From Chloroflexota bacterium (lineage in GTDB: Bacteria > Chloroflexota > Limnocylindria > Limnocylindrales > CSP1-4), in contig JAYTWS010000066.1 of the NCBI GenBank assembly GCA_043743315.1, positions 1 to 47,042 of the forward strand: 47,042 bases of DNA. The letters run 5' to 3'. Under the pieces are notes generated by a model that was not told where the DNA came from, searched no databases, and saw only the letters and a list, made by a program, of their open reading frames with translations. A program made the position numbers and the translations under genes. Below, one piece after another: positions 8,714-43,994 of the stretch; position 1 is the stretch's first letter; the number at the start of each line of letters is the position of its first letter.

Positions 8714-10813
8714 GTGCCTGACCTGACCCCCGACCTCGAGCGCCTCGCGATCAACACCATTCGCACGCTGTCGATCGACGGGGTCCAGCAGGCGAACTCG
8801 GGCCACCCCGGCGCACCGATGGGCATGGCCCCGATGGCGTACACGCTGTGGACCCGATTCCTGCGACACGCCCCGACGAACCCGCGTTGGCCGGACCGCG
8901 ATCGCTTCGTGCTGTCGGCCGGGCATGCATCGATGCTCCTCTACTCGCTCCTCCACCTCACCGGCTATGACGTCACGCTCGACGACCTCAAGTCGTTCCG
9001 CCAGTGGGGCTCGCGAACGCCGGGGCACCCCGAGTACGGCCTGACACCGGGCGTCGAGGCAACGACCGGGCCGCTCGGCCAGGGATTCACGAATGCGATC
9101 GGGATGGCGATCGCGGAGCGCCGCCTCGCCCACGAGTTCAATCGCCCCGGGCACGACGTCATCGACCACTGGACATACGCGCTGGCCAGCGATGGGGACC
9201 TCCAGGAGGGCATCGCGTCCGAGGCCGCGAGCCTTGCCGGGCACCTGATGCTGCGCAAGCTCGTGGTCCTGTACGACGACAACCACATCCAGCTCGACGG
9301 GCCGACCGACATGGCCTGGTCTGAGGATGTCCTCGCCCGGTTCGAGGCCTATCGTTGGCAGACCGCCCGGGTCGAGGATGGCAACGACGTTGGGGCGATT
9401 GCCGCCGCAATCGCCGGGGCGCACCGGGACGCGAGGCCGTCGATCATCGCGGTCCGGACGCACATCGGCTTCGGCAGCCCGAACAAGCAGGACAGCCAGA
9501 AAGCGCACGGTGCCCCGCTCGGCCCCGACGAGGTTCGCCTCACCAAGGAGGCGTACGGCTGGGATCCCGATGCCCAGTTCCTGGTGCCGGACGAAGCACT
9601 CGACGTCTTCCGGGCAGCCATCCCCGCGGGCGACGCCCTTGTCGCCGAGTGGAAAGGACGGATGTCGCGCTACGCGGACGGGTTCCCGACGGAAGCGGCC
9701 GAGTTGCGGCGCAGGTTTGCCGGCGAGCTGCGGGACGACTGGGACGCGGGTCTTCGGACGTATGCACTCGGCGAGGACTTCGCCACCCGGCAGGCGAGCC
9801 AGCAGGCGATCGCTTCGCTTGCCGAGCCGGTGCCGGAACTCTTCGGCGGCGCGGCGGACCTGTCCGAATCGAACCTGACCGACATCAAGGGCGCCGGTGA
9901 CTTCGAGGTCGAGGCCGCTGGGCGCAACCTGCGCTTCGGGGTGCGCGAGCATGCCATGGGTGCCGTCGCCAACGGGATCGCCTATCACGGTGGTTTCATC
10001 CCGTACGCGGCCACGTTCCTGACCTTTTCCGACTACATGCGCGGCTCGGTTCGCCTGGCGGCACTCGCCGGCCTGCACGTGATCTACGTCTGGACCCATG
10101 ATTCGGTCGGCCTGGGCGAGGACGGACCGACGCACCAACCGGTCGAGCATTACGCCGCCCTGCGGGCCATCCCGAACCTGTGGTTCGTCCGCCCCGGCGA
10201 TGCGAATGAGGCCGCCGCGGCGTGGGCGCTCGCGATCGAGCGGCGCGACGGACCGGTGGCCCTGGCCCTGACGCGTCAGAAGCTGCCGACGCTGCCCGGC
10301 ACGGCCGAACTGGCGCGTGAGGGACTGCGGAGCGGTGGATATATCCTCCGACGCGCCTCGTCCGAAGCAGACGGCGGTGCCCCCGCGATCATCCTCATCG
10401 CCACCGGATCCGAGTTGCAGCTGGCGATGGGCGCGGCCGAGGCCCTCGAGGCGGAGGGGACGCCGGCGCGGGTGGTCTCGCTCCCGTGCTGGGAGCGGTT
10501 CGATGTCCAGGATTCGGCGTATCGGGACGCCGTGCTGCCGCGTGCCGTAACGGCGCGGGTCACAGTGGAGATGGGCGTTTCCCTCGGCTGGGAGCGGTAC
10601 GCCGGTGACGCCGGGGCGATCGTCAGCATCGATCATTTCGGGGCGTCCGCACCGGCACCCACGATCTTCGAACGCTTCGGTTTCACCACCGAGCGCATCA
10701 TGGACGTCGCGCGTCGCGTCGCCGCCGGCGAGCGGCCCGGGCGGGTCCCGACGGTCGATCCGGGACACCAGCCGCCCGGCCTCGCTCGATCCGCCGATCA
10801 CGTGGCCGGGTGA
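8714..10813 (+). CDS. tkt: Transketolase
   Basis: 699 aa. The ThDP motifs are [34 protein letters not shown] and [14 protein letters not shown]. The C-terminal tail of about 25 aa is not typical of transketolases. Confidence 0.95.
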
Positions 10814-11280
10814 TGCGGATCGGGTTCGCGGCCGATCATGCCGGCGCCGCGCTCAAGGACGAGCTGCTCGGCCGGATTGGCGCGGCTGGTCTGGGGCATG
10901 AGCTGATCGACCTCGGTGGCGACGGATCAGATCCCACGGACGACTATCCCGACTTCGCCGCGCGGCTCGGCCACGCCGTTCGTGATGGCGAGGTCGAGCG
11001 AGGGATTTTGGTCTGCGGATCCGGGGTCGGGGCGTCCATCGCCGCCAACAAGATCCGCGGCGTCCGCGCGGCCGTGTGCCATGACACCTATTCCGCACAC
11101 CAGGGCGTGGAGCATGACGACATGAACGTCCTCACCCTCGGGGCTCGCGTCATCGGATCGGCGCCGGCCCTCGAAGCGGCCATCGCCTTCCTCGGCGCGA
11201 CCTTCTCGGGCGAATCACGGCACGTTCGACGCCTGAGCAAGGTCCTCGCCATCGAGGCCGAAGGCATAGCCCCGGACTGA
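10813..11280 (+). CDS. rpiB: Ribose-5-phosphate isomerase B
   Basis: [18 protein letters not shown]...[24 protein letters not shown] matches the RpiB/LacAB family. The ATG overlaps the tkt TGA by one base (TGATG). A GTG at 10810 is an alternative start. Confidence 0.9.
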
Positions 11281-11319
11281 TTACGTCGGCGACCAAGCGC
11301 CGCGTCTGTGCCGGGAGTC

Positions 11320-12750
11320 TCAGACCGCGGGCGGCACGAACGGCTCGTAACCCGGCGCCACGATGGGCCACGGATGCGCCGCTTCCCAGCGCTCGGCGAC
11401 CCTGAGCAGCAGTTCGTCCCCGGAGCGCGGCCCGGTGACCTGGAGCCCGAACGGGATCCCGTTATCGGATAGTCCGGCCGGCAGCGTCACCGCGGGATGC
11501 CCCGTGACGTTCTGGAGAGCGGTCGAATAGGCCGACGGCGGAAGCATCGACCCCGCGGCACCGCCACCGGGGCGACCATCGGGCGTCCAGCCCTCGAGGG
11601 CGACGGTCGGGGTGAGGAGGAGACCGGCCTCGCCGAGGAGCAGATCCAGCTGGCGGATGTGCTCGAACCGGCGACGGCGCACGGCCAGGTATGCATCGAT
11701 CCCGACCGCGAGGCCATCGGAGAGGAACGCCCTGGCTGCCGGATGCATCCGATCGCGCCCGGCCTCGACCCACCCCCGGCCAAGCGACGCTACGTGCTCG
11801 GCCGTGGCAATCACGAACCAGTCGAGGTCCGGGTCACCGGTAGTGAAGAAGCTCCCGGGCTCGCGCCACTCGGCTTCAAGACCCACGATGTCGGCGAACG
11901 CCCGGACCGCGGCCTCGAACTGCGAGGCGAGCCGCGGCGGCAACGGTCCGAGGTCACTGGTTCGGTGAGCGGCGAACAGACGATCCAGCGGGCGGCCGTC
12001 GGCAGAACGGACTCCGAACGGAGCCGTCGCGGGATCGCCCGCCACTGGCCCCGACTCGACATCCAGGAGCCGCCTGAGGTCGGCGACCGTCGTCGCAAAC
12101 GGACCCGGCGTCGAGAAGTCGATCCAGTCGTGGGGCGGCCAGCGGCCGATCCGCCCGGTCGTCGGCTTGATCCCCACCAGTCCACAGAATGCCGCGGGAA
12201 TGCGGATCGACCCACCGCCGTCGGTCGCGGTTGCGACGGGCACAAGTCCTGCCGCGACGGCCGCCGCGGACCCGCCGCTCGATCCGCCCGGCGACCAGGC
12301 GAGGCCCCAGGGGTTCCGCGTGGGACCGAACAGGAGGTTATCCGTGTAGCCCTCGGTCGCAAACTCCGGCATGTTCGACTTGCCCACGACGATCGCGCCG
12401 GCGGCTCGCAGGCGGGCCGGAATCGTGCCGTCCTCGACCGCGAAGGAGGCGTCCGCGAACAACACGGAGCCGTGCGTGGTTCGCATCCCGGCGACGTTCT
12501 CGGAATCCTTGACCAGGACCGGTACCCCTGCGAGCGCGCCGGGGTCGCGGCCGCCAGCGGCGATCAGGTCATCCAGGGCATCGGCCTCCCGCAGCGCTTC
12601 GTCTGCCCGAAGTGCGACCACCGCACCGAGCGTCGGATTGTCCCGCTCGATTCGCGTCAGTGCCAGTTCAACGACCGAACGAGCGCGGCTCCGGCCCGAC
12701 CGCACCGCCTCGGCAACGGCCATGACGGCACCGGTCGGCGCGCGGGTCAC
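11320..12750 (-). CDS. Amidase (amidase-signature family)
   Basis: 476 aa. AS signature [43 protein letters not shown]. The GTG start overlaps the upstream stop (GTGA at 12747-12750). An internal ATG at 12723 is an alternative start. Confidence 0.85.
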
Positions 12751-13697
12751 CGCGCTGGACGCGTGAGTGCCAGGAGTCCCAGGAACTCGTAGGCGACGTT
12801 GGCCGCCGCGAGGGCGGTCAGCTCGGCATGGTCGTAGGCCGGCGCCACCTCTACGACGTCGGCGCCGACGATCGGGAGGCCCGCGAGGCCACGCAGGATG
12901 GCCTGCAGTTCCCGTGACGTGAGTCCGCCCGGCTCGGGCGTCCCGGTTCCCGGCGCATGCGCCGGGTCGAGAACATCGATATCCACGCTCAGGTAAACGG
13001 GAGCGTCACCCGCGCGGGTCCGGATACGCTCGATCGCCACGTCGACACCACCCCGGGCCACTTCCGTGGTCGAGATAATGGCGAAGCCCATCCCGGCGTC
13101 ATCGGCGAGGTCCGACGCCGCATATAGCGGGCCGCGGATGCCGACATGCGAGGAACGATCCACCGCGAGGAGTCCCTCCTCGAACGCTCGCCGGAACGGC
13201 GTGCCGTGCGTATACGGGGCGCCGAAGTACGTGTCCCAGGTATCCAGATGAGCGTCGAAGTGGACGAGCGCAACCGGACCGTGACGCGCATGGGCTGCCC
13301 GCAGCAGCGGGAGGGCGATGGTGTGGTCGCCGCCGAGGGCGACGATCACCTGGGCGGACCGCAGCGTCTCGTGCGCTACCGCTTCGATCTGGCCGATCGC
13401 CTCGAGAATGTCGAACGGATTGCAGGACACGTCGCCGGCGTCTGCCACCTGCTGGACGGTCCACGGCTCGACCTGGAGCCCGGGGTGGTACGGCCGCAGG
13501 AGCTTGGACCCGGCGCGGATCGCCGACGGGCCGAACCGCGCGCCCGGTCGATACGAGACCCCGGAGTCGAACGGGACGCCGAGGATGGCCACGGCCGACG
13601 AGCCGACATCCGCGAGGCGCGGCAGCCGGGCGAACGTATCTGGGCCAACGTAGCGGGGCCGAACCCTGCCGTCCGGCGCACCGATCGGATCGGTCAT
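12747..13697 (-). CDS. Ureohydrolase of the agmatinase/guanidino-acid hydrolase (arginase) family
   Basis: Metal-binding motifs [16 protein letters not shown] and [22 protein letters not shown] are present. Start at ATG 13697 ([10 protein letters not shown]...), overlapping the upstream stop (ATGA). The 75-aa extension in the ORF track is R/P-rich and looks non-coding. Confidence 0.85.
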
Positions 13698-14086
13698 GGC
13701 GCGGCCGAGAGGTGTTCGTGGACGCCGAGCCATCGACCGCTGAGCGTGCGCCGGAAGACGATCGTCTCCCGCTCCTGCAGGTCGTGCTCGCCGTCGGCGT
13801 CGCGGTTCCGCGTCGCCACATCGTGCGTGAACACGGCGATCCCGTCCTCGATGATCTGGACCCGACCATTGCTGGATCGACAGCCGAGGACGCGGAAACC
13901 CGCCTCCTCCCATGACCGCCACTCGGCCTCATACGCGGCCCGGGACGGCAGGAGCGCCGCGGTCGTGTAGAAGAGGAACGTGGCCTCGGGCGCGAACGCG
14001 TCGAAGTACGCCCCCACGTCGTGAGCGCCGAAGGCGGCGACCAGTCGGGCCGCCGCCTCCAGGACCTCGGATGTCCGATCGGTCAT
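13694..14086 (-). CDS. NTF2-like / SnoaL-like (DUF4440-type) small protein
   Basis: 130 aa with length and pattern typical of the NTF2-like fold (...[12 protein letters not shown]...[19 protein letters not shown]). It has ATGA overlaps on both sides. Confidence 0.6.
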
Positions 14087-15501
14087 GGGCGCTCGGCGGC
14101 CAGCCGCCGCTCACTCTCCGCGATGGCCACCTCTTCCGCGGCCAGATCGAGCGAGCGTGTGAGAGCGAAGTAGGCGCCGGCGGACACAACCAGCCCGACG
14201 ATCGCCGAGATGTCGACGCCTCCGACCGAACCAACGAGCGGTCCCGAGAAGTAGCCCGGGATCACGACGAACGGGTACATCGAGGCGAGCCCGATCGCGT
14301 ACGAGATCAGCCCTCGACGGCCCCAGGCGCCGTAGATCCCCTTCGGGGTCGCGAGGTCGGTGATCGCGTAGCGGCCCTTCCGGACGAAGAAGTAGTCGAC
14401 AAGGTTGATCGCTGTCCAGGGGATGATCAGGTAGAGCATCACGATCAGGCTGTTGAACAGCGCCGTGATCGCGTCGCCAGGCAGCTGGAAGGCGACAATC
14501 GTCCAGACGACCGCCAGAACGACGATCGTGATGACACGAATCTGCCGGGTGGGCTTGATCGCCACGACCGAGTCGATCGCCGTCACGGTGGAGAGCATGG
14601 CGCTGTACCCGTTGATGCCCATCGTCGCCACGAGGGCGCACACGGACAGGATCGCGAGGAGCGAGCCGAGGCCCCCGAAGACGGCGTTGCCGCCGTCGCT
14701 CAGCGCAACGAGCGCATCCGTCGCACCAAGGTTCGTGGCAAGCCATGCCCCGAGGGCGATGAGCCAGACGGCTGATCCCGCCGCGCCCAGGAACACCGAG
14801 AGCACGATCGGTCGCGTTGGCGTGCCCTTCGGCAGGTACCGCGAGTAGTCAGACACATAGGGCGCGTAGGTGATGTTGTACGCCGCGGCGGCCACGAACA
14901 TCGAGGCGAAGCCGGCCAGTGTGAACTCGCCTCCCGCCGCCGGCGTCCCGCCCGCATTCCCGGTCACGATCGCGATCGTCAGGATCACGTAGAACGGGAA
15001 CGAGACGAAGAAGAGCACGCGGAAGACCCTGTGCAGGAGGTCGTGACCATAAATGGCCAGGGCGGTCGCGATCACGGTCACGACGATCCCGACAACGATC
15101 GGATCGAGACCGAACAGCCCATTGATCCCGCCGTCGATCAGCATCACGTCGACGACATTGAAGAGCATGAACGTGACCAACGATCCGAAGAGAGCGATGA
15201 TGACGCCGCTGTAGCCGAGCTGGGCTCTCGACTGGATCATCTGGGGCAGGCCCAGATGCGGCCCCTGCGTGGCGTGGAACGCCATGAAGAGCGTGCCGAA
15301 GAGGATCCCGAGCGTGCCGGCCACGATCGTGTCCACGATCCCCAGGCCGAACACCGGTCCGAGGAAGCCGATTGAGATCGTGAAGAACTGGAAGTTCCCG
15401 AGGAACCAGAATGGCCCCTGCTGCCAGACTTTGCCATGTCGCTCGGATTCCGGGACGTAGTCGATCGAGCGCGCTTCGATGACGGTCGCTTGCTCAGCCA
15501 T
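14083..15501 (-). CDS. NCS1-family (purine-cytosine/hydantoin/allantoin type) permease
   Basis: 472 aa with about 12 TM segments. The N-terminal NCS1 hallmark is IDYVPESERHGKVWQQGPFWFLGNFQFFT. GAGGGAGG lies upstream of the ATG. Confidence 0.85.
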   Translation of the reverse strand: MAEQATVIEARSIDYVPESERHGKVWQQGPFWFLGNFQFFTISIGFLGPVFGLGIVDTIVAGTLGILFGTLFMAFHATQGPHLGLPQMIQSRAQLGYSGVIIALFGSLVTFMLFNVVDVMLIDGGINGLFGLDPIVVGIVVTVIATALAIYGHDLLHRVFRVLFFVSFPFYVILTIAIVTGNAGGTPAAGGEFTLAGFASMFVAAAAYNITYAPYVSDYSRYLPKGTPTRPIVLSVFLGAAGSAVWLIALGAWLATNLGATDALVALSDGGNAVFGGLGSLLAILSVCALVATMGINGYSAMLSTVTAIDSVVAIKPTRQIRVITIVVLAVVWTIVAFQLPGDAITALFNSLIVMLYLIIPWTAINLVDYFFVRKGRYAITDLATPKGIYGAWGRRGLISYAIGLASMYPFVVIPGYFSGPLVGSVGGVDISAIVGLVVSAGAYFALTRSLDLAAEEVAIAESERRLAAERP

Positions 15502-15542
15502 GGTCCTCCCTCGAAGATCTTGCAGGCCGGGTTGCTCGGCCG

Positions 15543-15548
15543 AGTCTA
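15543..15548 (-). promoter_or_regulatory. -10-like hexamer TAGACT for the NCS1 operon (leader of about 35-40 nt with a Shine-Dalgarno)
   Basis: The minus strand reads cgaGTAGACTCgg, 41 nt upstream of ATG 15501. The same GTAGACT word precedes pgi and gnd. Confidence 0.4.
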
Positions 15549-15592
15549 CTCGTCGCGAGGACGGATTTGGCGGCCCTTTTGCCTCAGGAGAT

Positions 15593-15609
15593 CCGGCGCC
15601 CTGCGCCGG
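15593..15609 (-). terminator. GC hairpin just after the DUF4389 gene stop (possible terminator, no U-tract)
   Basis: CCGGCGC-cct-GCGCCGG is a perfect 7-bp stem. On the minus strand it lies 7 nt downstream of the stop at 15616-15618. Confidence 0.35.
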
Positions 15610-15615
15610 CCGCAG

Positions 15616-16257
15616 CTATTCGCTCGGTCCGAACGGCGGGTACGGCATCGGCATGAACAGGGCCCACAGCGACGTGCGCGACGTCATCCGGAGATAGCCG
15701 CCGAACAGGTCGTAGCCGACCTGGGGAAATCGCCCGTTGACGAGGACCGGGATCCACATGACGAACAGCAGAACGTAGACCGCGATCCCGAGGAAGAACA
15801 GGACGATGAACTGCGGAATCAGGGCGATCGCGCGAACGACAAAGCCGGTCCAGGGTATGCCCCATAGCCGGTTGATGCTCGACCGACGCTCGACAAGCAG
15901 GTCGACGCCGTAGGGCGCGTTGAGCGAAAACGGCGGATACGCATCGGTCATGAGGACCGCGTACGCGGCGACGCGCACGCCCCATCGGTACGTCGTCACG
16001 TACAGATCGAACAGCATCGCCGGCATCCTGCCGAGGAATAGCACCGGAATCCAAAGGAAATTCAGGAACAGGACACCGACGGTCCCAAGGACCGCCAGGA
16101 TCAGCCAGTGCGGAATGAGCAGAATCCAGCGCACCAGCAAGCCGAAGAACGGGATGCCCCACAGGCGATTGATTGTCTGGTTTCGATCGATCACCAGGTG
16201 CACCGGATAGCCCGAACCACCCGGGCCGCCGGGCGTGCCTGAAACTGCTGTAACCAT
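15616..16257 (-). CDS. DUF4389-like membrane protein (two tandem copies of the module)
   Basis: The block INRLWGIP(F/W)xGxxVRxIxLIPxxxxL...WIPVL(F/V)xGR(M/F)P occurs twice. Start at ATG 16257 (MVTAVSGTPG...) with GGGAGTGGAG upstream. Confidence 0.7.
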   Translation of the reverse strand: MVTAVSGTPGGPGGSGYPVHLVIDRNQTINRLWGIPFFGLLVRWILLIPHWLILAVLGTVGVLFLNFLWIPVLFLGRMPAMLFDLYVTTYRWGVRVAAYAVLMTDAYPPFSLNAPYGVDLLVERRSSINRLWGIPWTGFVVRAIALIPQFIVLFFLGIAVYVLLFVMWIPVLVNGRFPQVGYDLFGGYLRMTSRTSLWALFMPMPYPPFGPSE

Positions 16258-16323
16258 CTCCACTCCCTCGAGTATCTGTGCGCGCGGACCGGCAGCATAC
16301 GTCGGCTGGACGCCTCCGGATCC

Positions 16324-16380
16324 GGTCGATCGGCGCCCGCGGGGCCGATCGGCGCTTGGGGGGCCGATCGGCGCACGCGG
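16324..16380. repeat. Three tandem 19-bp direct repeats (core CGATCGGCGC) abutting the pgi -10 element
   Basis: The three units are ggtCGATCGGCGCccgcgg, ggcCGATCGGCGCttgggg and ggcCGATCGGCGCacgcgg. The cores start at 16327, 16346 and 16365. They lie in the divergent DUF4389-pgi spacer. Confidence 0.8.
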
Positions 16381-16381
16381 G

Positions 16382-16387
16382 TAGACT
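16382..16387 (+). promoter_or_regulatory. -10-like hexamer TAGACT upstream of pgi
   Basis: gGTAGACTTg lies 48 nt before ATG 16436. A GAGGTGGAG Shine-Dalgarno follows. Confidence 0.4.
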
Positions 16388-16435
16388 TGAAGTGCGGTCC
16401 CGCGATGCCCCGGAAGCTGCGACAGAGGTGGAGTC

Positions 16436-18226
16436 ATGAGCGCCGAATTCGACCTTCGCCTGTCGTCGACCGACGAGGCGGCCGTGATGGCTGTGGCTGA
16501 TCACGCGCGACGAAACAGCTGGGCCGAGCGCCTCATGGACCGCGACGTGACCCTCTGGTCAGACGACCCCGACGTGCAGCGCTCCATCGCAGATCGCCTC
16601 GGGTGGCTCGACGCCCCGGCCCATTTCACCGATCAGATCGCAGCCCTCGAGGGCTTCGGCGATGGCATTCGGGTGGCGGGCTTCCGGACGGCAGTCGTGA
16701 TGGGGATGGGCGGTTCGAGCCTGGCCCCGGAGGTCCTGCATCGGACCTTCGGCACCGCCGACGGGTACCTCGATCTCCGGGTCCTCGATTCCACCGATCC
16801 AGCAGCCGTTGCCGCCGTCGTCGACGACCTCGACCCGCTCTCAACCCTGTGGATCGTGGCATCGAAGTCGGGCACCACGACCGAACCGCTGGCTTTCCTG
16901 GCCGATGCCTGGGCGCGAATCGCCGACGCGCTGGCGGTGGCCGGCTCATCGCAGCAACCGGGCGAGTTCATCGTGGCCATCACCGATCCGGGAACGAGCG
17001 TCGGAGCGATCCCGCACCACGACGACCTTCGCGAGGTATTCCTCAATCCGCCCGACATCGGGGGCCGCTACGCCGCGTTGTCCTACGTCGGCCTCGTGCC
17101 TGCTTCCTTGATCGGGCTGGACCTCGATTCGCTGCTGGCGTCCGCCTCGATGATGGTCGCCGCAAGTCGAGAACCGGAGCCGCAGCGCAATCCGGCACTC
17201 CTGCTGGGGATTGCCCTCGGCGAGCTCGTACGACAGGGCCGGGACAAGTTGACGTTCATGATGGATCCGGCGCTCGCCAGCTTCGGGGCGTGGGCCGAGC
17301 AGCTGATCGCCGAGTCGACCGGCAAGCACGGCATCGGGATCGTTCCCGTCGATCGGGAACCACTTGGTGCCACTGACGCGTACGGCACGGATCGGGTGTT
17401 CGTGTCGATGGCCCTGACCGACTCGGCGGATCCATCGCACGGACTGCTCGATGCACTCGCTGCCGCCGGGCATCCCGTGATCCGACTGGTCCTCGATGAC
17501 CCGATGGACCTCGGCGCCGAATTCATCCGCTGGGAGGTGGCTACGGCGATCGCGGGCGCCGTCCTGGGCATCGACCCATTCGATCAGCCGAACGTCGAGG
17601 AGGCCAAGGAGCTGACCCGTCAGCTGCTCGCAGCCAAGGGGACCGCCGCCGGGCTCGCGGGCGCCGCCGGGCGCGCGGGTGCCGCCGGACGCGCGGGCGC
17701 CGCCGGACGCGCGGGTGCCGCCGGGCGCGCGGGTGCCGACTCGGTCGAGGATCCGATGCGCCCGCTCGACATCGAGTCAGTCGGGCAGGATGCCCTCATC
17801 GAAGCGATCCGAGCCGGACTCAGGAGCGATGCGCGCGCGGGCCATTACATGGCGATCCAGGCGTTCATTGCCCCGAACGACGCGGCCGATGCGACCTTCG
17901 AGCGGATCCGCGCCCTGGTCCGCGACCGAACCGGCATGGCCACGACCTCCGGCTACGGGCCACGCTTCCTCCACTCGACCGGCCAGTTGCACAAGGGAGG
18001 AGCGGCCACGGGCTGGTTCGTTCAGTTGATCTCGGCTCATCCGCTCGATCGCGAAATTCCCGGCTGGCCGTATACGTTCGGCGGCCTCATCGATGCCCAG
18101 GCTCAGGGCGATGCCGGTGCCATCTCATCTCACGACCTTCCAATCCTTCGCTTGCGGCTGGGCATCGACCGTGATGCCGACCTCGCCATGCTGGAGCGAG
18201 CCTTCGCCAAGGCGCTCAACGCCTAA
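16436..18226 (+). CDS. pgi: Glucose-6-phosphate isomerase (the PGI type often found fused to transaldolase)
   Basis: 596 aa. SIS-domain motifs VVMGMGGSSLAPEV and WIVASKSGTTTEPLAF are present. The N-terminus RDVTLWSDDP...LGWLD resembles the PGI half of Tal-PGI fusions. It carries an internal tandem-repeat insert. Confidence 0.85.
   Translation: MSAEFDLRLSSTDEAAVMAVADHARRNSWAERLMDRDVTLWSDDPDVQRSIADRLGWLDAPAHFTDQIAALEGFGDGIRVAGFRTAVVMGMGGSSLAPEVLHRTFGTADGYLDLRVLDSTDPAAVAAVVDDLDPLSTLWIVASKSGTTTEPLAFLADAWARIADALAVAGSSQQPGEFIVAITDPGTSVGAIPHHDDLREVFLNPPDIGGRYAALSYVGLVPASLIGLDLDSLLASASMMVAASREPEPQRNPALLLGIALGELVRQGRDKLTFMMDPALASFGAWAEQLIAESTGKHGIGIVPVDREPLGATDAYGTDRVFVSMALTDSADPSHGLLDALAAAGHPVIRLVLDDPMDLGAEFIRWEVATAIAGAVLGIDPFDQPNVEEAKELTRQLLAAKGTAAGLAGAAGRAGAAGRAGAAGRAGAAGRAGADSVEDPMRPLDIESVGQDALIEAIRAGLRSDARAGHYMAIQAFIAPNDAADATFERIRALVRDRTGMATTSGYGPRFLHSTGQLHKGGAATGWFVQLISAHPLDREIPGWPYTFGGLIDAQAQGDAGAISSHDLPILRLRLGIDRDADLAMLERAFAKALNA
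17645..17734 (+). repeat. In-frame tandem repeat inside pgi: 5 x 18 bp encoding (AAG[L/R]AG)5
   Basis: The unit gccgccggNcgcgcgggY occurs five times back to back. It translates to AAGLAG AAGRAG AAGRAG AAGRAG AAGRAG. (17645-16436) is divisible by 3. Confidence 0.9.
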
Positions 18227-18260
18227 GGGCCGGTCGCGGAGTCCGGGCGGCGGGGCGGCG

Positions 18261-18368
18261 CGCTGCCACGCCAGGCCCGGTGGACCCCCACGCTGCCACG
18301 GCAGGCGCACCGGACCCCCACGCTGCCACGCCAGGCCCGGTGGACCCCCACGCTGCCACGGCAGGCCC
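18261..18368. repeat. Tandem array of about 3.6 x 30 bp with alternating A/B variants (60-bp higher-order period)
   Basis: A=cgctgccacgccaggcccggtggaccccca (18261, 18321). B=cgctgccacggcaggcgcaccggaccccca (18291). A truncated B-like copy lies at 18351-18368. The array starts 35 nt after the pgi TAA. Confidence 0.9.
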
Positions 18369-18430
18369 GTCATTCGTCCGGCGTAAGAAGTCGACGTGAT
18401 GAGCCCTCGCGCGGTGGGCACCGTGTCGAT

Positions 18431-18603
18431 CTCGTACGTGGGGCGTATGAGATCGACGAATCACCGCCGCGAAGCTGTCTGCAGGTCGCTTGGCAAGCTC
18501 CGTTCCTAGGCCCGGCGTATGAACTGGCCGTTCTTCGGGCTCCATGCGTCAACTTCTTACGTGGCAGGTATGACGATGCGGGTTTCATACGTGGCGCGTA
18601 TGA
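18431..18603. promoter_or_regulatory. Three operator-like 19-21 bp palindromes (TCnTACG-N5-CGTATGA) plus half-sites in a lower-GC core
   Basis: The three sites are cTCGTACGtggggCGTATGAg (18431-18451), TCTTACGtggcagGTATGA (18555-18573) and TCATACGtggcgCGTATGA (18585-18603, perfect 7-bp arms). Half-sites are cggCGTATGA (18513-18522) and CGTAAGAAG (18382-18390). Confidence 0.45.
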
Positions 18604-18620
18604 AGGACGCAAGAGTGCCG

Positions 18621-18817
18621 AGCAGGCTGGCGCGCCGAGCAGGCTGGCGCGCCGGGCGGGAACCAAGGCGCCGCGCAGGCTGGCGCGCCGCGCAGGCTGG
18701 CGCGCCGCGCAGGCTGGCGCGCCGGGCGGGAACCAGGGCGCCGCGCAGGCTGGCGCGCCGGGCGGGAACCAGGGCGCCGGGCGGGAACCAAGGCGCCGGG
18801 CGGGAACCAGGGCGCGC
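18621..18817. repeat. Interleaved two-unit tandem array: X (17 bp) and Y (19 bp) in the order XXYXXXYXYYY
   Basis: X=NGCAGGCTGGCGCGCCG and Y=GGCGGGAACCARGGCGCCG. There are eleven contiguous units with no spacers. Periods of 17 and 19 bp are not multiples of 3. Confidence 0.9.
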
Positions 18818-18885
18818 GGGGAGCTGCCCAGGGAGTACCTCGTAGCCTCAGGTCACGCCGCTTCGGCGCAGGAACGGTCCGCGCG

Positions 18886-18891
18886 TAGACT
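18886..18891 (+). promoter_or_regulatory. -10-like hexamer TAGACT upstream of gnd
   Basis: gcGTAGACTTgg lies 61 nt before ATG 18953. A GGAGG Shine-Dalgarno follows. Confidence 0.35.
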
Positions 18892-18952
18892 TGGTGCAAG
18901 GTCGGCGGCTGCACATCAGTCGCGCCGCCACCTGCATCGGAGGCGTCGCGAC

Positions 18953-19852
18953 ATGCGCATCGGGTTCATCGGACTTGGCCGGATGGGGGCCAACATGTGC
19001 CGCCGGCTAATGCAGGACGGCCACCAGATCGTGGCCTACAACCGCAGCCCCGAGAAGACCCAGGAGCTCGCGACCGAGGGTGCCGAACCGTCGTTCTCGA
19101 TCGCCGAACTCGTGGGCAAGCTCGAGAAGCCTCGAACGGTCTGGATCATGGTCCCGGCGGGCGACGCCACGGAGGCCCAGATCGCGGAGCTGACGGCGCA
19201 CCTCGAACCGGGCGACACGATCGTCGACGGCGGCAACACGAACTTCCATGACGACGTCCGGCGCCACGCGGACCTCGCGAAGCAGGGCGTCCAGTACGTC
19301 GATGCCGGCGTATCCGGCGGGATCTGGGGCCTGAAGGTCGGCTTCTGTCTGATGGTCGGCGGCGAGGTGGCCGCGGCGACGCCCCTGGAGCCCGTCTTCC
19401 TGAGCCTCGCGCCCGAGGGCGGCTACATCCATGCCGGCCCGCCCGGCGCCGGCCACTACGTGAAGATGATTCACAACGGGATCGAGTACGGAATGATGCA
19501 GTCATACGCGGAGGGATTCGAGATCCTCCACGCCTCGGAGTACGACCTCGACCTGGCGGCCATCGCCGACAACTGGATGCATGGCAGCGTCGTCCGGAGC
19601 TGGCTGCTCGAGCTGCTAGGGCTCGCCTACAAGGGCCAGGGCCAGGACCTCGAGCACCTCAAGGGCTGGGTCGCCGATTCCGGCGAGGGCCGCTGGACCG
19701 TCCAGGAGGCGATTGATCGGGACGTCCCGGCGCCCGTCATCACGATCGCGCTGCAGACGCGGTTCCGTTCGCGCCAGGACGACAGCTACGGAGCCAAGGT
19801 CCTCGCGGCGCTGCGCAACGAGTTCGGCGGACACGCGGTCAAGAACAGCTGA
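18953..19852 (+). CDS. gnd: 6-phosphogluconate dehydrogenase, short decarboxylating form (about 300 aa)
   Basis: The Rossmann N-terminus is MRIGFIGLGRMGANM. VDGGNTNFHDD, DAGVSGGIWG and KMIHNGIEYGMMQSYAEGF match the Gnd family. Confidence 0.9.
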   Translation: MRIGFIGLGRMGANMCRRLMQDGHQIVAYNRSPEKTQELATEGAEPSFSIAELVGKLEKPRTVWIMVPAGDATEAQIAELTAHLEPGDTIVDGGNTNFHDDVRRHADLAKQGVQYVDAGVSGGIWGLKVGFCLMVGGEVAAATPLEPVFLSLAPEGGYIHAGPPGAGHYVKMIHNGIEYGMMQSYAEGFEILHASEYDLDLAAIADNWMHGSVVRSWLLELLGLAYKGQGQDLEHLKGWVADSGEGRWTVQEAIDRDVPAPVITIALQTRFRSRQDDSYGAKVLAALRNEFGGHAVKNS

Positions 19853-19853
19853 C

Positions 19854-21473
19854 GTGGCAAGCGCCGCGAGCCCCGCACCATCGGGACCCCGCACGATCCG
19901 CGAGGAGCGCCTCGAGCGCGGCGGCAAGCGGCGCCGCGCGCCGAAGGTCGTCGCGAATCCACTCCGCGAGGGCCTTCGCCTGGAGCGCGTCCCGGATCCG
20001 CACGTCATGGTCCTGTTCGGGGCCACCGGTGACCTGTCGCATCGCAAGGTCTTCCCGGCGCTTGCCCAGCTCTGGCGGACCAACCTGCTGCCCCAGGACT
20101 GGCAGCTCGTGGCGGTCGGCCGGCGGCCGTATGACGACGAGACATTCCGGGCCGAGATCGGCAAGTCCCTCGAGCAGCACAGCCGTGTCCAGCTCGATGC
20201 CGAGGTCGGAGCGCAGTTCCTGAGCCGGATCTCCTACCACCAGGGCGACTTCGGCGATGACGCCGCGTTCGATCGACTGGCCGAACGCCTCGATGCGATG
20301 GACGCCGAGCACGGCATGCTGGGCCACCGCCTGTTCTATCTCGCGACCCAGTCCTCGGCATTCCCGGTCATCGTGGCCCAGCTCGGCCGGTGCGGGCTCG
20401 ATCACGAGGTCCACGGTGGCGGCTGGCGCCGGATCGTCATCGAGAAGCCGTTCGGGCGAGACCTCGATTCCGCGAAGAAGCTCAACCGCGAGGTCGGCCG
20501 GGTCTTCCGCGAGTCGCAGGTCTATCGGATCGACCACTACCTCGGCAAGGAAACGGTCCGGAACCTGATGGTCTTCCGGTTCGGCAACGGGATCTTCGAG
20601 CCGCTCTGGAACCGCCGGTACGTCGATCACGTGCAGATCACGATGGCCGAATCGATCGGGGTCGAGGAGCGCGGCTCGTTCTACGAGGAGACCGGCGCGA
20701 CCCGCGACGTCGTCCAGAACCACCTGCTCCAGCTCCTCACGCTCGTGGCGATGGAGCCCCCGGCAACCTTCGAGGCCGATGCCCTCCGGGACGAGAAACT
20801 GAAAGTCCTCCGGGCCATCCAGCCCCCGACGCCAGCCGACGTCGCGGCCAATGTGGTTCGCGGCCAGTACGGTCCGGGCTGGGTTGCCGCCGAGGCCGTC
20901 AAGGGCTATCGGCAGGAGCTTGAAGTCGACCCCGAATCGGAGACCGAGACGTTTCTGGCGGCCCGCTTCCAGGTCGACGACTGGCGCTGGTCCGACGTCC
21001 CGTTCTATCTCCGAACCGGCAAGCGGTTGCCCAAGCGCGCGACTGAGATCGCCATCCAGTTCAAGCAGGTCCCACATCGGCTGTTCCAGGACGCAGCCGT
21101 GGATCCGGAGCCCAACCTGCTGGCGATCCGGATCCAGCCCGATGAGGGGATCCTGCTCCGGTTCGGCTCGAAGGTGCCGGGTCTGGGCCTCGACATCCGG
21201 ACCGTGACGATGGACTTCACCTACGGGTCCGCGTTCTCGGTGGACAGCCCCGACGCCTACGAGACCCTGATCCTCGATGCCATGCTCGGCGACGCCTCGT
21301 TGTTCACGCGGGCCGACGAGGTCGAGGCGGCCTGGGCCATCGCGACGCCGATCGTCGAGACCTGGGTGGATGGCCCCGCGCCCGAGATGCCGAACTACAC
21401 CGCCGGGACGTGGGGCCCGGATGCCGCCGATGCCCTGATCGAGCGAGACGGCCGCCGCTGGCGCCGGATCTGA
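19854..21473 (+). CDS. zwf: Glucose-6-phosphate 1-dehydrogenase
   Basis: VLFGATGDLSHRKVFPAL, the active-site motif RIDHYLGKE and QNHLLQLL are present. I chose the start at GTG 19854, 1 nt after the gnd stop. The tracked ORF start at 19713 lies inside gnd. The exact start is uncertain. Confidence 0.9.
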   Translation: MASAASPAPSGPRTIREERLERGGKRRRAPKVVANPLREGLRLERVPDPHVMVLFGATGDLSHRKVFPALAQLWRTNLLPQDWQLVAVGRRPYDDETFRAEIGKSLEQHSRVQLDAEVGAQFLSRISYHQGDFGDDAAFDRLAERLDAMDAEHGMLGHRLFYLATQSSAFPVIVAQLGRCGLDHEVHGGGWRRIVIEKPFGRDLDSAKKLNREVGRVFRESQVYRIDHYLGKETVRNLMVFRFGNGIFEPLWNRRYVDHVQITMAESIGVEERGSFYEETGATRDVVQNHLLQLLTLVAMEPPATFEADALRDEKLKVLRAIQPPTPADVAANVVRGQYGPGWVAAEAVKGYRQELEVDPESETETFLAARFQVDDWRWSDVPFYLRTGKRLPKRATEIAIQFKQVPHRLFQDAAVDPEPNLLAIRIQPDEGILLRFGSKVPGLGLDIRTVTMDFTYGSAFSVDSPDAYETLILDAMLGDASLFTRADEVEAAWAIATPIVETWVDGPAPEMPNYTAGTWGPDAADALIERDGRRWRRI

Positions 21474-21481
21474 TCACGACC

Positions 21482-22741
21482 GTGGAAGAGATCGGGATCC
21501 AGGACGCGCCTGTGGTCGGGCAACCCATCCTTCGGTGGTCCTCGCGGACCGATTCCCTGGCCGGCATCGAGGCGGAGCTCGCCAAGGCCTGGTCCTCGAC
21601 GCCGCTGACCACGGCGGGAGACGACGGCGCCCCGGAGCGCCGGATCGCCGCCCGGACGAGCGTGCTCAACCTGGTGGTGATCGCCCGGCAGCCGGAGATC
21701 GGGGCACGGGCCGCGGCGGTGATCCGGATGCTGACCGGCCGGCACCCATCGCGGACCCTGATCGTCTCGAGCGCCGATCCGGACGGTCCGTCGTGGCTCG
21801 ATGCGCACATCCAGGCCCATTGCGTGCTGCCCAGACCGGACGCGGCGGAGACCTGCGCTGAGTTCATCGATCTCGTCGCCGGCGGCGAGACCGGACGCCA
21901 CGTCGCCGCGATCGTCGCGCCGCTATTGGTCCACGATCTGCCGGTGACCGTCTGGTGGCCAGGGGATCCGCCCCTCGGCACGCGCCAGGCCCGCGACATG
22001 GTGGACATGGCCGATCGCCTGGTGGTCGATGGCTCCCACTGGTCCGGTGACGGCCTCGAGCGACTGCGAGCGCTGGCGCACGTCGTGGCGAGTCACCAGG
22101 CCAGCGGTCATCCGCTGGCCGTGTCGGATTTCGCGATGATTCGCCAGTCGCGCTGGCGTGAGGCGATCGCCTCGAGCTTCGATCGCCCGGAGCTGCGGCC
22201 GTTCCTGGCGGGAATCACCGACATCACCGTCCGTTATGCCGCGCATGCGGAGACCGATGCCAACAGCACGAACCTGATCAAGCCGCTCTACCACCTCGGC
22301 TGGCTGGCCTCGCGGCTCGGGATGGTCGTCGTGGACCCGCTCCACCCGGTTGTGCCGAATACGGATCCCGACACCGAAGATGGCGAGGGCCTCGACGATG
22401 GCGAGGGCCTCGGGCCGCCCCTGGTCGGCGAGCTCAGGGCCGGTCGGCGGCGCGTGCGGGTCTCGATCAGGCCCATGGCTTCGCCGATGCCGCCCGGCAC
22501 CACGCTGACCGTGGAGCTGGCCGCGCGCCGCCGCGGCGTCGATCTCGCGGTCGTGGTGTCCGCGGAGGCCGAGGCCGTCATCGTGAGTGCGACGCTCGAC
22601 GGCCGGGCCATGCCGGTTCGCAGGTTCATGGCGCCACGACGAACGGAGGTCGAGCTGCTCGCCGAGACCGTCGAATCCGTCGGCGTGGATCCGGTGGCCG
22701 TCGCAGCACTGTTCGCCGCCGCCGCCCTGGTCCCGGCGTGA
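21482..22741 (+). CDS. opcA: Glucose-6-phosphate dehydrogenase assembly protein OpcA
   Basis: RTSVLNLVVIA...GRHPSRTLIV...ETCAEFIDL...VAPLLVHDLPVTVWWPGDPP are typical OpcA blocks. It sits between zwf and pgl. The start is uncertain (GTG 21482 chosen, ATG 21410 would overlap zwf by 64 nt). The C-terminus is longer than usual. Confidence 0.8.
   Translation: MEEIGIQDAPVVGQPILRWSSRTDSLAGIEAELAKAWSSTPLTTAGDDGAPERRIAARTSVLNLVVIARQPEIGARAAAVIRMLTGRHPSRTLIVSSADPDGPSWLDAHIQAHCVLPRPDAAETCAEFIDLVAGGETGRHVAAIVAPLLVHDLPVTVWWPGDPPLGTRQARDMVDMADRLVVDGSHWSGDGLERLRALAHVVASHQASGHPLAVSDFAMIRQSRWREAIASSFDRPELRPFLAGITDITVRYAAHAETDANSTNLIKPLYHLGWLASRLGMVVVDPLHPVVPNTDPDTEDGEGLDDGEGLGPPLVGELRAGRRRVRVSIRPMASPMPPGTTLTVELAARRRGVDLAVVVSAEAEAVIVSATLDGRAMPVRRFMAPRRTEVELLAETVESVGVDPVAVAALFAAAALVPA
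22379..22414 (+). repeat. In-frame 2 x 18 bp tandem duplication inside opcA (DGEGLD DGEGLG)
   Basis: gatggcgagggcctcgac is followed directly by gatggcgagggcctcggg. Confidence 0.85.
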
Positions 22742-23577
22742 TGGACGACCCCGAGATTACGGTCTTCCCGGCAGCGGGGGACGTGTCGCACGCGGCGGCG
22801 GGACGGATCGCCAACGCGATCATCGATGCCGTCACCGAGCGGGGTGTCGCCCACTGGGTCACGACCGGCGGCTCGACCCCGGGCCTGATCTACCGCCATC
22901 TCGCGGATTCGCCGCTCCGGGAGATGATCCCCTGGGATCGCGTTCACCTTTGGTGGAGCGACGATCGCTGGGTTCCGCCAGACGACGTCCTCTCGAATGC
23001 CCTCGCCTGCTGGGATCTCCTGCTGCGCGATGTGCCCGTCCCCCTCGATCAGGTCCACGTGATGCCGATTGCCGAGGCGATGCGGTCGGGCGACCCACCC
23101 GAGGTCGTGGCTGCACGGTACGAGGGGACGATGCGGGACGCCGGCCTCGAGGTCGATGACGCTGGATTCCCACGGATGGATGTCGTCCTCGTCGGCATCG
23201 GCTCTGACGGGCATCTCTTCTCGGTCTTTCCCGATTCACCCACCTGGGCCGACCCGAGCTGGGTCCAGGCCGTGGCTGCGCCGACCCATATCGCGCCGAG
23301 GGTCGCCCGCGTGACCCTCAACCCGAACGTGATCACGGCCGCTCGGTGGCCGTTGGCGGTCGTCCACGGTGCGGCCAAGGCGCCGATTCTGGGCGAGCTC
23401 TTCGGCCCCGTGCTCGATACGCGCCGGTGGCCGGCCCAGTTGATGCGTCGCGCTGGCGCTGCTTGGCTGCTCGACGAAAGCGCGGCCGCGGGACTTCCGT
23501 CCGAGGCGGTCGTGCGCCGCGAGGCGGCCGCCCCGGATATGGGCGAGTCGGGCCGCTCGGTGGCCTGGACGCCGTAA
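22738..23577 (+). CDS. pgl: 6-phosphogluconolactonase
   Basis: GGSTP...LHLWWSDDRWVPPDD...VLVGIGSDGHLFSVFP is the Pgl/NagB-like signature. The start overlaps the opcA stop (GTGATG at 22738-22743), so ATG 22741 is equally possible. Confidence 0.85.
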   Translation: MMDDPEITVFPAAGDVSHAAAGRIANAIIDAVTERGVAHWVTTGGSTPGLIYRHLADSPLREMIPWDRVHLWWSDDRWVPPDDVLSNALACWDLLLRDVPVPLDQVHVMPIAEAMRSGDPPEVVAARYEGTMRDAGLEVDDAGFPRMDVVLVGIGSDGHLFSVFPDSPTWADPSWVQAVAAPTHIAPRVARVTLNPNVITAARWPLAVVHGAAKAPILGELFGPVLDTRRWPAQLMRRAGAAWLLDESAAAGLPSEAVVRREAAAPDMGESGRSVAWTP

Positions 23578-23581: not shown

Positions 23582-24499
23582 ATGGCGGTCCCGGATCGGT
23601 TCGTTCGGTCCCGGGACGGGACGCCCATCGCGGTCTTCTCGTCGGGGCCCCCGGGCAGGGCCGATGCCGGAGCCGGGCCAACGCCCGAAACGGGGCCCGG
23701 AGCCGGGCCAACGCCCGAAACGGGGCCCGGACCCGGAGCCCTTGCCCCGCCGGTGGTCCTGGTCCATGGAACGACTGCGGATCACCTGACGTTCCGGGTC
23801 GTCGCGCCGCTGCTCGGAACGCGATACCGCCTCCACGCCATCGATCGGCGCGGCCGGGGTGATTCGGGCGATGCACCGAACTCGTACACCGTCGAGCGCG
23901 AGTTCGAGGATGTCGCCGCGGTGGCGGACGCGATCGCCGCGGAGACCGGCGGGCCGGTCGACGTAGTGGGGCACTCCTTCGGTGGGCGCTGCGCGCTCGG
24001 GGCGGCGCTCCGGACAACCTCGATCCGCCGCGTGGTCTGCTATGAGGGTGCCCCGCCGGCTTCACGGGACCTTGCTTCGGCGTACGAGCCGCCCTGGCTC
24101 CTGCCCGCGCTCGCCGCCGATCTCGCAGACGGCGACCTCGAGGGTCTCCTTGAGCGGTTCATGCGAACCGTCGTGGGGATGGACGATGCGGGCATGGCCC
24201 GATTACAGGCGGACCCCGTGTGGCCCCTGCGGGTGGCGGCGGCACCGACGATCCTCCGGGAGCTCGCGGCATCGAACGATCACGCGGCAGGGCTCGATGC
24301 CCTCGGTGCAGTGACCATTCCGGTCCTCCAGATCCTGGGATCGGCCAGCTCCGCCGCATTCGCCCGTAATACGGCGGCACTCGATCGACGGCTCGCGCAC
24401 GGCTCGATCGTCCGCATCGGAGGCGCGGCGCACGCGGCGCACCACACGCATCCCTCCGAGTTCGTCGCCGATGTGGAGGCGTTCCTCGACGCGCCATGA
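23582..24499 (+). CDS. Alpha/beta-fold hydrolase
   Basis: 305 aa. It has VLVHGTTADH, the nucleophile elbow GHSFGG and a C-terminal GGAAHAAHHTHP block. It starts 4 nt after the pgl stop and carries an N-terminal tandem duplication. Confidence 0.8.
   Translation: MAVPDRFVRSRDGTPIAVFSSGPPGRADAGAGPTPETGPGAGPTPETGPGPGALAPPVVLVHGTTADHLTFRVVAPLLGTRYRLHAIDRRGRGDSGDAPNSYTVEREFEDVAAVADAIAAETGGPVDVVGHSFGGRCALGAALRTTSIRRVVCYEGAPPASRDLASAYEPPWLLPALAADLADGDLEGLLERFMRTVVGMDDAGMARLQADPVWPLRVAAAPTILRELAASNDHAAGLDALGAVTIPVLQILGSASSAAFARNTAALDRRLAHGSIVRIGGAAHAAHHTHPSEFVADVEAFLDAP
23669..23728 (+). repeat. In-frame perfect 2 x 30 bp tandem duplication (GAGPTPETGP x2) in the hydrolase N-terminus
   Basis: ggagccgggccaacgcccgaaacggggccc is repeated exactly. 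(23669-23582) is divisible by 3. Confidence 0.9.
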
Positions 24500-43976: not shown

Positions 43977-43994
43977 GGGGCCTCCTGTGGATCG

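Follow-up and report, generated by a model that had tools for sequence, protein, structure and literature searches.

A palindrome-rich core between two minisatellites in the pgi-gnd spacer of a soil Chloroflexota genome

Anatomy of the pgi-gnd spacer

The subject of this analysis is the spacer between pgi and gnd in an uncultured soil Chloroflexota of 69% GC, contained in a stretch of 47,042 nucleotides (GenBank assembly GCA_043743315.1, contig JAYTWS010000066.1) that we call the window and that has a GC content of 69.4%. Both genes belong to a plus-strand pentose-phosphate super-operon, identified with Pfam and family profiles, in which tkt, rpiB, pgi, gnd, zwf, opcA and pgl follow one another in an order that is kept in relatives. 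At 726 bp, the pgi-gnd gap is the largest non-coding stretch of the window, the other two apparent gaps of more than 500 bp containing genes according to a Pfam scan. A sequence-only reading of the window had described the gap as lacking a credible open reading frame (ORF), and three lines of evidence agree. No ORF in the gap has a coding-like GC content at third codon positions (GC3), all those of at least 20 aa translate as text rich in R, P, G and A, and three spacer ORFs returned zero matches from 5.8 billion proteins, a weak proxy for dispersal, as such ORFs may never be called as genes. The parts of the spacer, with its two boundary genes, are as follows.

16436-18226, plus strand: pgi, the PGI half of the transaldolase/PGI family (Pfam PGI; NF007080 positions 385-948), 5' boundary of the spacer
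18261-18369: array A, a 30-bp minisatellite in 3.6 copies (Tandem Repeats Finder (TRF), 86% matches, score 176)
18370-18616 (247 bp): core with five dyad-symmetric sites, 59.5% GC
18617 to 18813/18815: array B, 11 contiguous units in the order XXYXXXYXYYY (TRF scores 245-267)
18886-18891, plus strand: TAGACT, likely -10 box of an internal gnd-zwf-opcA-pgl promoter, invariant in 7 clade genomes
18939-18943, plus strand: GGAGG, Shine-Dalgarno sequence of gnd (ATCGGAGGC invariant in the 7-genome alignment)
18953-19852, plus strand: gnd, a short 6-phosphogluconate dehydrogenase (TIGR00872/NF007161), 3' boundary of the spacer

This layout is largely the one that the sequence-only reading had drawn. 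TRF recovers an array A of about 3.6 x 30 bp with alternating variants, the lower-GC core does hold palindromes and a long-range inverted repeat, array B has the unit order proposed for it and starts 4 bp to the left of where it had been placed, and the promoter and Shine-Dalgarno sequence expected after array B are the invariant TAGACT and GGAGG. The repeats are also real, because two independent assemblies break exactly inside the arrays, at 18290 and 18792. Both are contigs of this species that were assembled from short reads of other samples, and they were found by exact-protein look-up (a look-up with rpiB gave no record). The first, L162 (Logan, SRR23617269), equals window positions 9997-18290 at 99.98% and ends at the end of the first unit of array A, and the second, L161 (ENA, ERZ28573550), equals 18792-20537 at 100% and begins inside the last Y unit of array B.

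The most informative part of the spacer is its core. The palindrome TCATACG-N5-CGTATGA, with up to 3 mismatches allowed, has six matches in the 47 kb against 0.9 expected, and five of the six lie within 235 bp of the core, with site starts at 18370, 18432, 18504, 18555 and 18585.

18370-18388: site 1, TCATTCG-TCCGG-CGTAAGA, degenerate, with one mismatch per arm
18432-18450: site 2, TCGTACG-TGGGG-CGTATGA, inside an extended 14+14 palindrome, GTCGATC...GATCGAC, at 18425-18457
18504-18522: site 3, TCCTAGG-CCCGG-CGTATGA, left arm degenerate
18555-18573: site 4, TCTTACG-TGGCA-GGTATGA
18584-18604: site 5, TTCATACG-TGGCG-CGTATGAA, a perfect palindrome
18368-18406 and 18537-18575: long-range imperfect inverted repeat, 39 nt, 74% complementary

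The three full sites have the asymmetric centre GTGG in common, and TACGTGG occurs three times in the window, always within the core, while the sequences between the sites are not repeats of each other. The long-range inverted repeat pairs site 1 and its right flank with site 4 and its left flank; it dominates the single-strand fold and is barely above shuffled sequence (z 2.4). Similar inverted repeats spanning 178-221 bp are present in three relatives, L003, L002 and L082, and as each of these repeats reaches only z 0.9-2.4 against shuffles, they were dropped as stand-alone evidence. Single-strand folding gives minimum free energy (MFE) z-scores of -4.4 for the plus strand of the window, -5.2 for its minus strand and -3.3 for L003. 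No Rfam 15 family matched the spacer at its gathering score, the best hits, with E-values of 2.6-4.8, scoring far below threshold, and no terminator-like site was found in 18100-19050. Pfam scans of about 50 window ORFs found no helix-turn-helix regulator near the locus. The sole related regulator finds, all far from the spacer, were a gene for an extracytoplasmic function (ECF) sigma factor (851-1399, minus strand) and a toxin-antitoxin pair of ribbon-helix-helix and PIN proteins (1564-1821 and 1818-2249).

Comparison with related loci

The spacer was compared with 161 related loci totalling 1.87 Mb, and blastn-short and tblastx searches against them returned only GC-rich low-complexity noise. 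The distance from pgi to gnd is at most 100 bp in 82 of the 88 loci with pgi upstream, most commonly 2-10 bp, and the expanded spacer is confined to the small clade to which the window belongs. With pgi and gnd nearly fused in more distant relatives, a spacer with its own promoter appears to be an innovation of this small clade. Flanking proteins are 70-92% identical between the window and its relatives, and the pgi orthologues that stand directly upstream of gnd are 68-74% identical. The closest matches to gnd in the genome collections come from metagenome-assembled genomes (MAGs) of Chloroflexota, several carrying the label Limnocylindrales, and do not exceed 92% identity; in metagenome contigs the identity is at most 88%, and no strain closer than 92% in gnd was found in the metagenome and genome collections searched. 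Spacer lengths in the clade, with the centre-to-centre spacings of the palindromes where these form an array, are as follows.

Window: 726 bp; spacings 62, 72, 51 and 30 bp
L002 (sister genome): 604 bp
L003: 496 bp; spacings 62, 50, 51 and 30 bp
L082: 358 bp; spacings 93 and 31 bp
L081: 158 bp
L001: 153 bp
L004: 108 bp

Palindromes of other sequences occupy the same spacer in relatives. L003 has five sites of the form TTGCR-N5-YGCAA (starts 9609, 9671, 9721, 9772 and 9802), L082 has three of the form TGATGC-N8-GCATCA (starts 4638, 4731 and 4762), and L001 has one TTGCR-N5-YGCAA-type site, a single hairpin 10 bp past the pgi stop. L002 carries three CGGCGTCGT motifs at a spacing of exactly 31 bp. 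The palindrome families of the relatives are restricted to the pgi-gnd spacer, with only chance singletons elsewhere in the 1.87 Mb, and no palindrome arrays were found upstream of gnd in more distant relatives. When aligned, the arms read TCATACG in the window, TGATGCG in L082 and nnTTGCR in L003, with arm positions 2 and 5 altered on both arms in every copy, so that the changes are symmetric double changes.

The window and L003 agree in site number and nearly so in spacing, and at a period of 10.3-10.45 bp all spacings are in phase (R 0.95), which corresponds to 3, 5, 6, 7 or 9 whole helical turns. When random spacings were scored at their best over periods of 9.5-11.5 bp, they matched this R in 1 of 5000 cases (about 2e-4; seven independent spacings). 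A site-anchored, ungapped comparison of the window with L003 gives 43 identities at 107 inter-site positions, against a mean of 29 and a maximum of 42 at 120 other offsets (z 3.1). Because offset 0 gives the best identity, the two cores appear to be orthologous and nearly saturated with change. Global alignment of the cores is weak for the window against L003 (z 2.4) and not significant for the window against L002. One 8-mer common to the window and L003, CAACTTCT, was dismissed as chance, about 1.75 such matches being expected. Comparison with related genomes, which the sequence-only reading had put forward as a check, divides the spacer in two, in that its arrays are unshared while the number and spacing of its core sites recur in L003.

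Promoter, flanking arrays and neighbouring genes

The most conserved part of the spacer lies next to gnd. A block about 60-100 bp upstream of the gene, CGNGTAGACTG, shows no change across the 7 clade genomes, which also have in common the sequence around the Shine-Dalgarno motif just before the gnd ATG. TAGACT occurs only four times in the 47 kb, at 15543 (minus strand), 16382, 18886 and 34983 (minus strand), and every copy lies 5' of a correctly oriented gene. Because of this conservation and distribution, we place the -10 box of a gnd promoter internal to the operon at 18886-18891. A consensus sigma-70 scan of the spacer gave no match and missed TAGACT, which was spotted through conservation alone. 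A sigma-54 promoter was rejected, there being no conserved GG-N10-GC in the 7-genome alignment. In relatives, TAGACT or TATGCT is found at the matching place upstream of gnd, a candidate -10 consensus for the lineage. L081 has a palindrome, GGATCACG-GCGT-CGTGATAC, at 2125-2144, in the -35 region about 10 bp upstream of TAGACT; its counterpart in L003 (about 9893-9912) is partly conserved and non-palindromic, and the palindrome may be a separate promoter-proximal operator of that sub-lineage.

The copy of TAGACT at 16382-16387 lies 48 bp upstream of pgi, and its surroundings (GTAGACTTG..GTGC) resemble the gnd promoter. It is abutted by a 19-bp x2.9 array (16324-16387) whose unit carries the palindrome GCCGATCGGC, so the -35 region of the likely pgi promoter consists of minisatellite units.

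Arrays A and B are built differently from each other. In array A, unit 3 (at 18321) repeats unit 1 (at 18261) exactly, and a variant form occupies units 2 and 4, giving a 60-bp higher-order unit. Array B has six units of X (GCCGMGCAGGCTGGCGC, 17 bp) and five of Y (GCCGGGCGGGAACCARGGC, 19 bp), which can interleave because both have the common ends GCC...GGCGC, and it contains a nested duplication, a 70-bp higher-order (XXYX)x2 with 95% matches in TRF. Their GC content is 81-84%, and the units hold short GC palindromes (GGCGCGCC, GGCGCC and the one seen at the pgi promoter). No relative among the 161 loci has a counterpart of either array. The arrays of L002 are different, among them a 31-bp x2.5 repeat; at the place of array A, L003 shows GC-rich quasi-repeats of irregular form; L082 has an 18-bp x2 repeat in mid-spacer, and the spacers of L081, L004 and L001 have none. 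The view that the whole composite is one unit is not sustained by L002, with its different arrays, or by L081 and L004, with no arrays at all.

Minisatellites are not restricted to the spacer. Counting those with a period of at least 12, at least 2.5 copies and a score of at least 80, we found a density of about 2.5 per 100 kb over all fetched loci, with 4 in the window, all between 16.3 and 18.8 kb, and 5 in the 21 kb of L002. Inside pgi, at 17644-17738, lies an in-frame 18-bp x5.3 array of 90% GC that encodes (AAGRAG)5. The linker that carries it (about aa 398-470) is hypervariable and unalignable in many relatives, and L002 has another array there, of 24 bp (8826-8918). A further 30-bp x2.3 tandem repeat with 97% matches, at 23667-23736, is located near the 5' end of an alpha/beta-hydrolase ORF (23582-24499).

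Since the spacer arrays are unshared by relatives and the same lineage forms arrays in pgi and at the pgi promoter, we read them as slippage products. On their sequences, arrays A and B look like ordinary lineage-specific minisatellites arising from slippage or unequal exchange, not part of a conserved device. Both consist of head-to-tail units with variants within the range of roughly 10-100 bp that defines variable-number tandem repeat (VNTR) loci. The mycobacterial interspersed repetitive unit (MIRU) loci are VNTR minisatellites of bacterial operon spacers. Arrays A and B resemble them in their head-to-tail 17-30-bp units, intergenic position within an operon, variants, nested duplications and lineage specificity; in contrast to MIRU-type loci, their units are at no other locus of the window, and the interleaving of X and Y with common ends is less usual.

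The remaining genes of the super-operon are as follows.

8714-10813, plus strand: tkt
10810-11280, plus strand: rpiB
end at 21473, plus strand: zwf
21410-22741, plus strand: opcA
22738-23577, plus strand: pgl

The mechanical zwf ORF, with a TTG at 19713, overlaps the final 140 nt of gnd (19713-19852), and the G6PD_N domain begins only at residue 100 of this ORF; the real zwf start is probably well downstream of 19713. Between rpiB and pgi lies a minus-strand block of about 5 kb (11320-16258), in this genome only, with genes for an amidase, an arginase-family protein, a SnoaL-like protein, a cytosine/purine permease and a DUF4389 membrane protein. In relatives, the rpiB-pgi distance is 10-116 bp, and L003 has only a DUF4389 homologue there. 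The arrangement is backed by the independent Logan contig L162 (99.98%). Elsewhere, the window has a selenocysteine set of selB (40587-42548), selA (42555-44087) and tRNA-Sec (43999-44091, 74 bits), all on the minus strand, in which the listed selA ORF overlaps tRNA-Sec, so that selA must really begin further inside its ORF. A CRP-like dyad, TTGTGACA-N7-TGTCACGA, is found at 33654-33676 within a 296-bp divergent intergenic region (33605-33900).

Interpretation of the core

Judging from its sequence, the core may be a phased operator-type array for a dimeric, sequence-specific DNA-binding protein, with arrays A and B flanking it as ordinary expansions. We favour this reading tentatively, with a little less than even confidence. 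From one half-site sequence per genome, dyad symmetry, a recurring number and spacing of sites and their position on one helix face, we infer dimers that bind double-stranded DNA cooperatively, and the family of the protein and the regulatory outcome considered below are likewise inferred.

On this reading, the spacer is a structure of three layers. The last 130 bp or so (18820-18952) form a conserved, likely internal promoter and leader for gnd-zwf-opcA-pgl, and this promoter would have arisen in the ancestor of a small Chloroflexota clade. In the second layer, the five dyads of the core, at 6, 7, 5 and 3 helical turns, would place bound dimers on one face of the DNA, where they could form a cooperative higher-order complex that probably bends or wraps it. 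Located between the pgi stop and the gnd promoter, such a complex would tune entry into the oxidative pentose-phosphate genes, as an upstream platform that activates or represses the promoter, by blocking read-through from pgi, or in both ways. The specificity of the putative protein would have drifted between lineages, and all its sites would have followed. Arrays A and B, the third layer, would be young products of replication slippage or unequal exchange of GC-rich, hairpin-prone units; they are most likely neutral, and their effect would at most be to alter how far the site array lies from the promoter and how the two are rotated relative to each other. The sequence-only reading had offered a regulatory hub or a protein-loading region among its possibilities. 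Of its four possibilities this one suits the core best, given its dyads, their single helix face and their recurrence in a relative, and it does not extend to the arrays, which relatives do not conserve. An iteron-like region in the replication sense finds no footing, since there is no rep gene in the window, the dyads are irregularly spaced, and an AT-rich unwinding region is missing, the lowest GC content being 59%. The same reading also named the scar of a non-autonomous element, which the core may yet represent. Its exclusion of a CRISPR (clustered regularly interspaced short palindromic repeats) locus and of a terminator stands. The units are contiguous, the best CRISPR direct-repeat family in Rfam reaches 16.8 bits against a threshold of 45, the window encodes no cas domain, and no GC-rich stem-loop followed by a T-tract is present in 18100-19050.

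Among known systems, the core bears several likenesses to the targets of Lrp-family regulators, which are clusters of multiple imperfect palindromes of 13-15 bp on one helix face that support cooperative binding and wrapping (PMC2995911). Two optimal sites published for the Lrp/AsnC family are TACGA-WWW-TCGTA and TTGCAA-WWW-TTGCAA, and replacing one residue of such a protein is enough to shift a base of the arms in a symmetric manner (PMC2715240), which would explain the lineage-specific arms. As in the Ss-LrpB boxes and the TvFL3/FL11 sites (PMC2995911), several imperfect sites lie on one helix face, here five of them at whole turns, and the TACG-N5-CGTA of the window and the TTGCA-N5-TGCAA type of L003 agree with the two optima in arms and arm spacing (PMC2715240). 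Unlike Lrp/AsnC clusters, the core has spacings of 5-7 turns beside the usual 2-3, L082 has a centre of even length (N8), and the centres are not A/T-rich as in the family (PMC2715240, PMC2995911), reading TGGGG, TGGCG, TGGCA, CTCGG, CAGGG and similar. The 47-kb window holds no Lrp/AsnC gene. We use this likeness as a working analogy and not as a family assignment.

Other multi-site or metabolic regulators offer partial parallels. At glnAp2, five NtrC sites form an enhancer-like upstream array. The core is similar in having several dyads, the strongest pair about 3 turns apart, at a flexible 80-300 bp upstream of the promoter, and it differs in its sigma-70-type TAGACT box and in the lack of the sigma-54 element noted above. 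HexR, of the RpiR family, binds TTGT-N7-8-ACAA at zwf in Pseudomonas (PMC5489143). Its operators at zwf and Entner-Doudoroff genes resemble the present sites in the dimer-type 4-N7/8-4 format (here TTGC-N7-GCAA, ATAC-N7-GTAT and ATGC-N8-GCAT) and in the gnd-zwf pathway concerned. The half-sites are nevertheless different, with arms ATAC/GTAT in the window, and the one or two promoter sites of HexR contrast with five phased copies that stand well upstream here, some 295 bp from the -10 box. The window contains no RpiR gene.

Several points weigh against an operator array. The GC-rich site centres (TGGGG, TGGCG, CTCGG and others) break the AT-rich-centre rule of the Lrp family, and the palindromes, the roughly 200-bp inverted repeat and the strong single-strand folding also fit hairpin-type elements. 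No candidate regulator gene was found in the 47-kb window. The sites stand 80-290 bp 5' of the -10 box, and this distance varies by genome (about 45, 82, 115 and 295 bp), which is atypical of a simple repressor. The register and phasing tests were devised once the pattern had already been seen. The whole block, some 350 bp, is absent from L081, whose flanking proteins are 93% identical to those of L003, and from L004, and is dispensable. Finally, a single assembly supplies both the copy numbers and the spacer interior at 18291-18791.

A rather unlikely alternative, though the best of those considered, is that the core consists of selfish palindromes similar to repetitive extragenic palindromic (REP) sequences, REPINs or miniature inverted-repeat transposable elements (MITEs), each genome having accumulated its own hairpin family after the pgi stop. 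REP sequences carry a GTAG/CGTC tag, their families can be small, and as dimers they build larger hairpins (PMC3733652). Site 1 and site 4, inverted and with their flanks, would then make a REPIN-like hairpin of about 210 nt, and any protection of mRNA 3' ends or termination would be a by-product. Like REP, bacterial interspersed mosaic elements (BIMEs) and REPINs (PMC3733652), the dyads are short, imperfect and extragenic, within the 20-40-bp format or close to it (19-21 bp, and 33 bp at site 2), lie between co-directional genes of an operon, are homogeneous in each genome and differ between genomes, and are paired in inverted orientation into a larger hairpin. The imperfect inverted repeats of four genomes, the strong folding of both strands and the presence of the whole block in L003 and its absence from the sister L081 point the same way, as do the CGTC tag 5' of site 1 and, on the minus strand, of site 4, and the small size that REP families can have (PMC3733652). 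The tag is inconsistent, however; it is missing at three of the five sites (2, 3 and 5), and where present it overlaps the stem and is not unpaired as in REP (PMC3733652). No further copies of the palindromes were found in the 47-kb window (up to 3 mismatches) or in 6.5-21 kb of L003, L082 and L001, and the translated spacer ORFs match none of the 5.8 billion proteins. The segment 18368-18575 has arms of only 74% complementarity and flanks, GGCAGGCC and ATGCGGGT, without a target-site duplication, which does not suit a MITE. Site number and spacing that recur across lineages, residual identity in register and whole-turn helical phasing would be unexpected of independent insertions.

It is unlikely, in our judgement, that the spacer is non-functional, fast-evolving junk, a sink for local duplications and slippage once a new promoter had uncoupled pgi from gnd. 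The palindromes would be recent local copies, and their spacing an accident of duplication history, for example of a unit of about 31 bp. The lack of nucleotide similarity between the spacer and any relative, its range of 108-726 bp within the clade with loss of the block in L081 and L004, and the proneness of the lineage to minisatellites are all in keeping with this, and in L002 a simple 31-bp tandem repeat takes the place of the palindromes seen in others. The GTGG centre common to the three full sites is also what recent copies would have. With flanking proteins only 70-92% identical, however, neutral DNA should be randomised, whereas near-perfect palindromes last in three lineages, with number and spacing alike in two and arm changes that are symmetric. 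No multiple of 31 bp gives the spacings of 50, 51 and 72 bp, which do amount to whole helical turns, and the inter-site sequences are not repeats of each other.

Quite improbable is a structured RNA, either a 3' untranslated region of pgi, acting as a stabiliser or an RNase III site that uncouples pgi and gnd mRNA, or a small RNA, with stems kept by compensation. The plus-strand fold (z -4.4, and -3.3 in L003), stems that differ in sequence between genomes with pairing kept, and an element that begins right after the pgi stop, where L001 has its single hairpin, would suit such an RNA. The minus strand folds even better (z -5.2), so the signal is one of DNA palindromy, and an RNA has no need for one stem sequence per genome or for spacing in whole DNA turns. 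The short stems of sites 1, 3 and 4 contain mismatches that are not wobble pairs, Rfam yields no match, and neither a promoter nor a terminator that could serve a separate RNA was found. The structured RNA listed by the sequence-only reading is thus weakened by the helical phasing and by the fact that both strands fold equally well. An invertible switch is extremely unlikely, in which the roughly 208-bp segment 18368-18575 would carry recombinase-binding palindromes and flip an orientation-dependent promoter or terminator upstream of gnd: inverted repeats do bound a 178-221-bp segment in four genomes, and the 6-7-6 dyads at its ends resemble recombinase core sites in their asymmetric centres, but complementarity between the arms is only 74%, sites 1 and 4 have unlike central 7-mers (GTCCGGC and GTGGCAG), there are five sites and not two, the window has no recombinase gene and the segment no promoter-like site, and no second orientation was seen for a segment covered by one assembly only.

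A bolder version of the operator array is that the core is a vertically inherited nucleoprotein switch of the oxidative pentose-phosphate operon, in which a regulator and its five phased operators co-evolved and the 17/19-bp array serves as a copy-number dial of expression. We regard this as a long shot. The co-evolved specificities may be TACG-N5-CGTA, TGCR-N5-YGCA and TGCG-N6-YGCA, and changes in the 17/19-bp minisatellite would shift the distance and rotation between complex and promoter, yielding heritable and reversible expression variants. If true, this would be a natural case of concerted drift in regulator and operator specificity, with a repeat-based tuner, in an uncultured phylum. 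If the palindromes instead proved to be dispersed, the locus would represent a new, untagged REP-like family in Chloroflexota.

The arrays have a significance of their own. In this lineage, GC-rich minisatellites arise easily in promoters, in spacers and even within coding linkers, and short-read assemblies break at exactly these points, a practical warning for MAG-based annotation. To our knowledge, next to nothing has been established about how soil Chloroflexota regulate their central carbon metabolism. If the core is an operator array, it would supply a concrete cis-element, five phased dyads upstream of gnd-zwf-opcA-pgl with three natural specificity variants. These variants could help to find the cognate regulator through correlated changes in its recognition helix across the three genomes, and the locus would then be usable for studying joint changes of specificity in a regulator and its multi-site operator.

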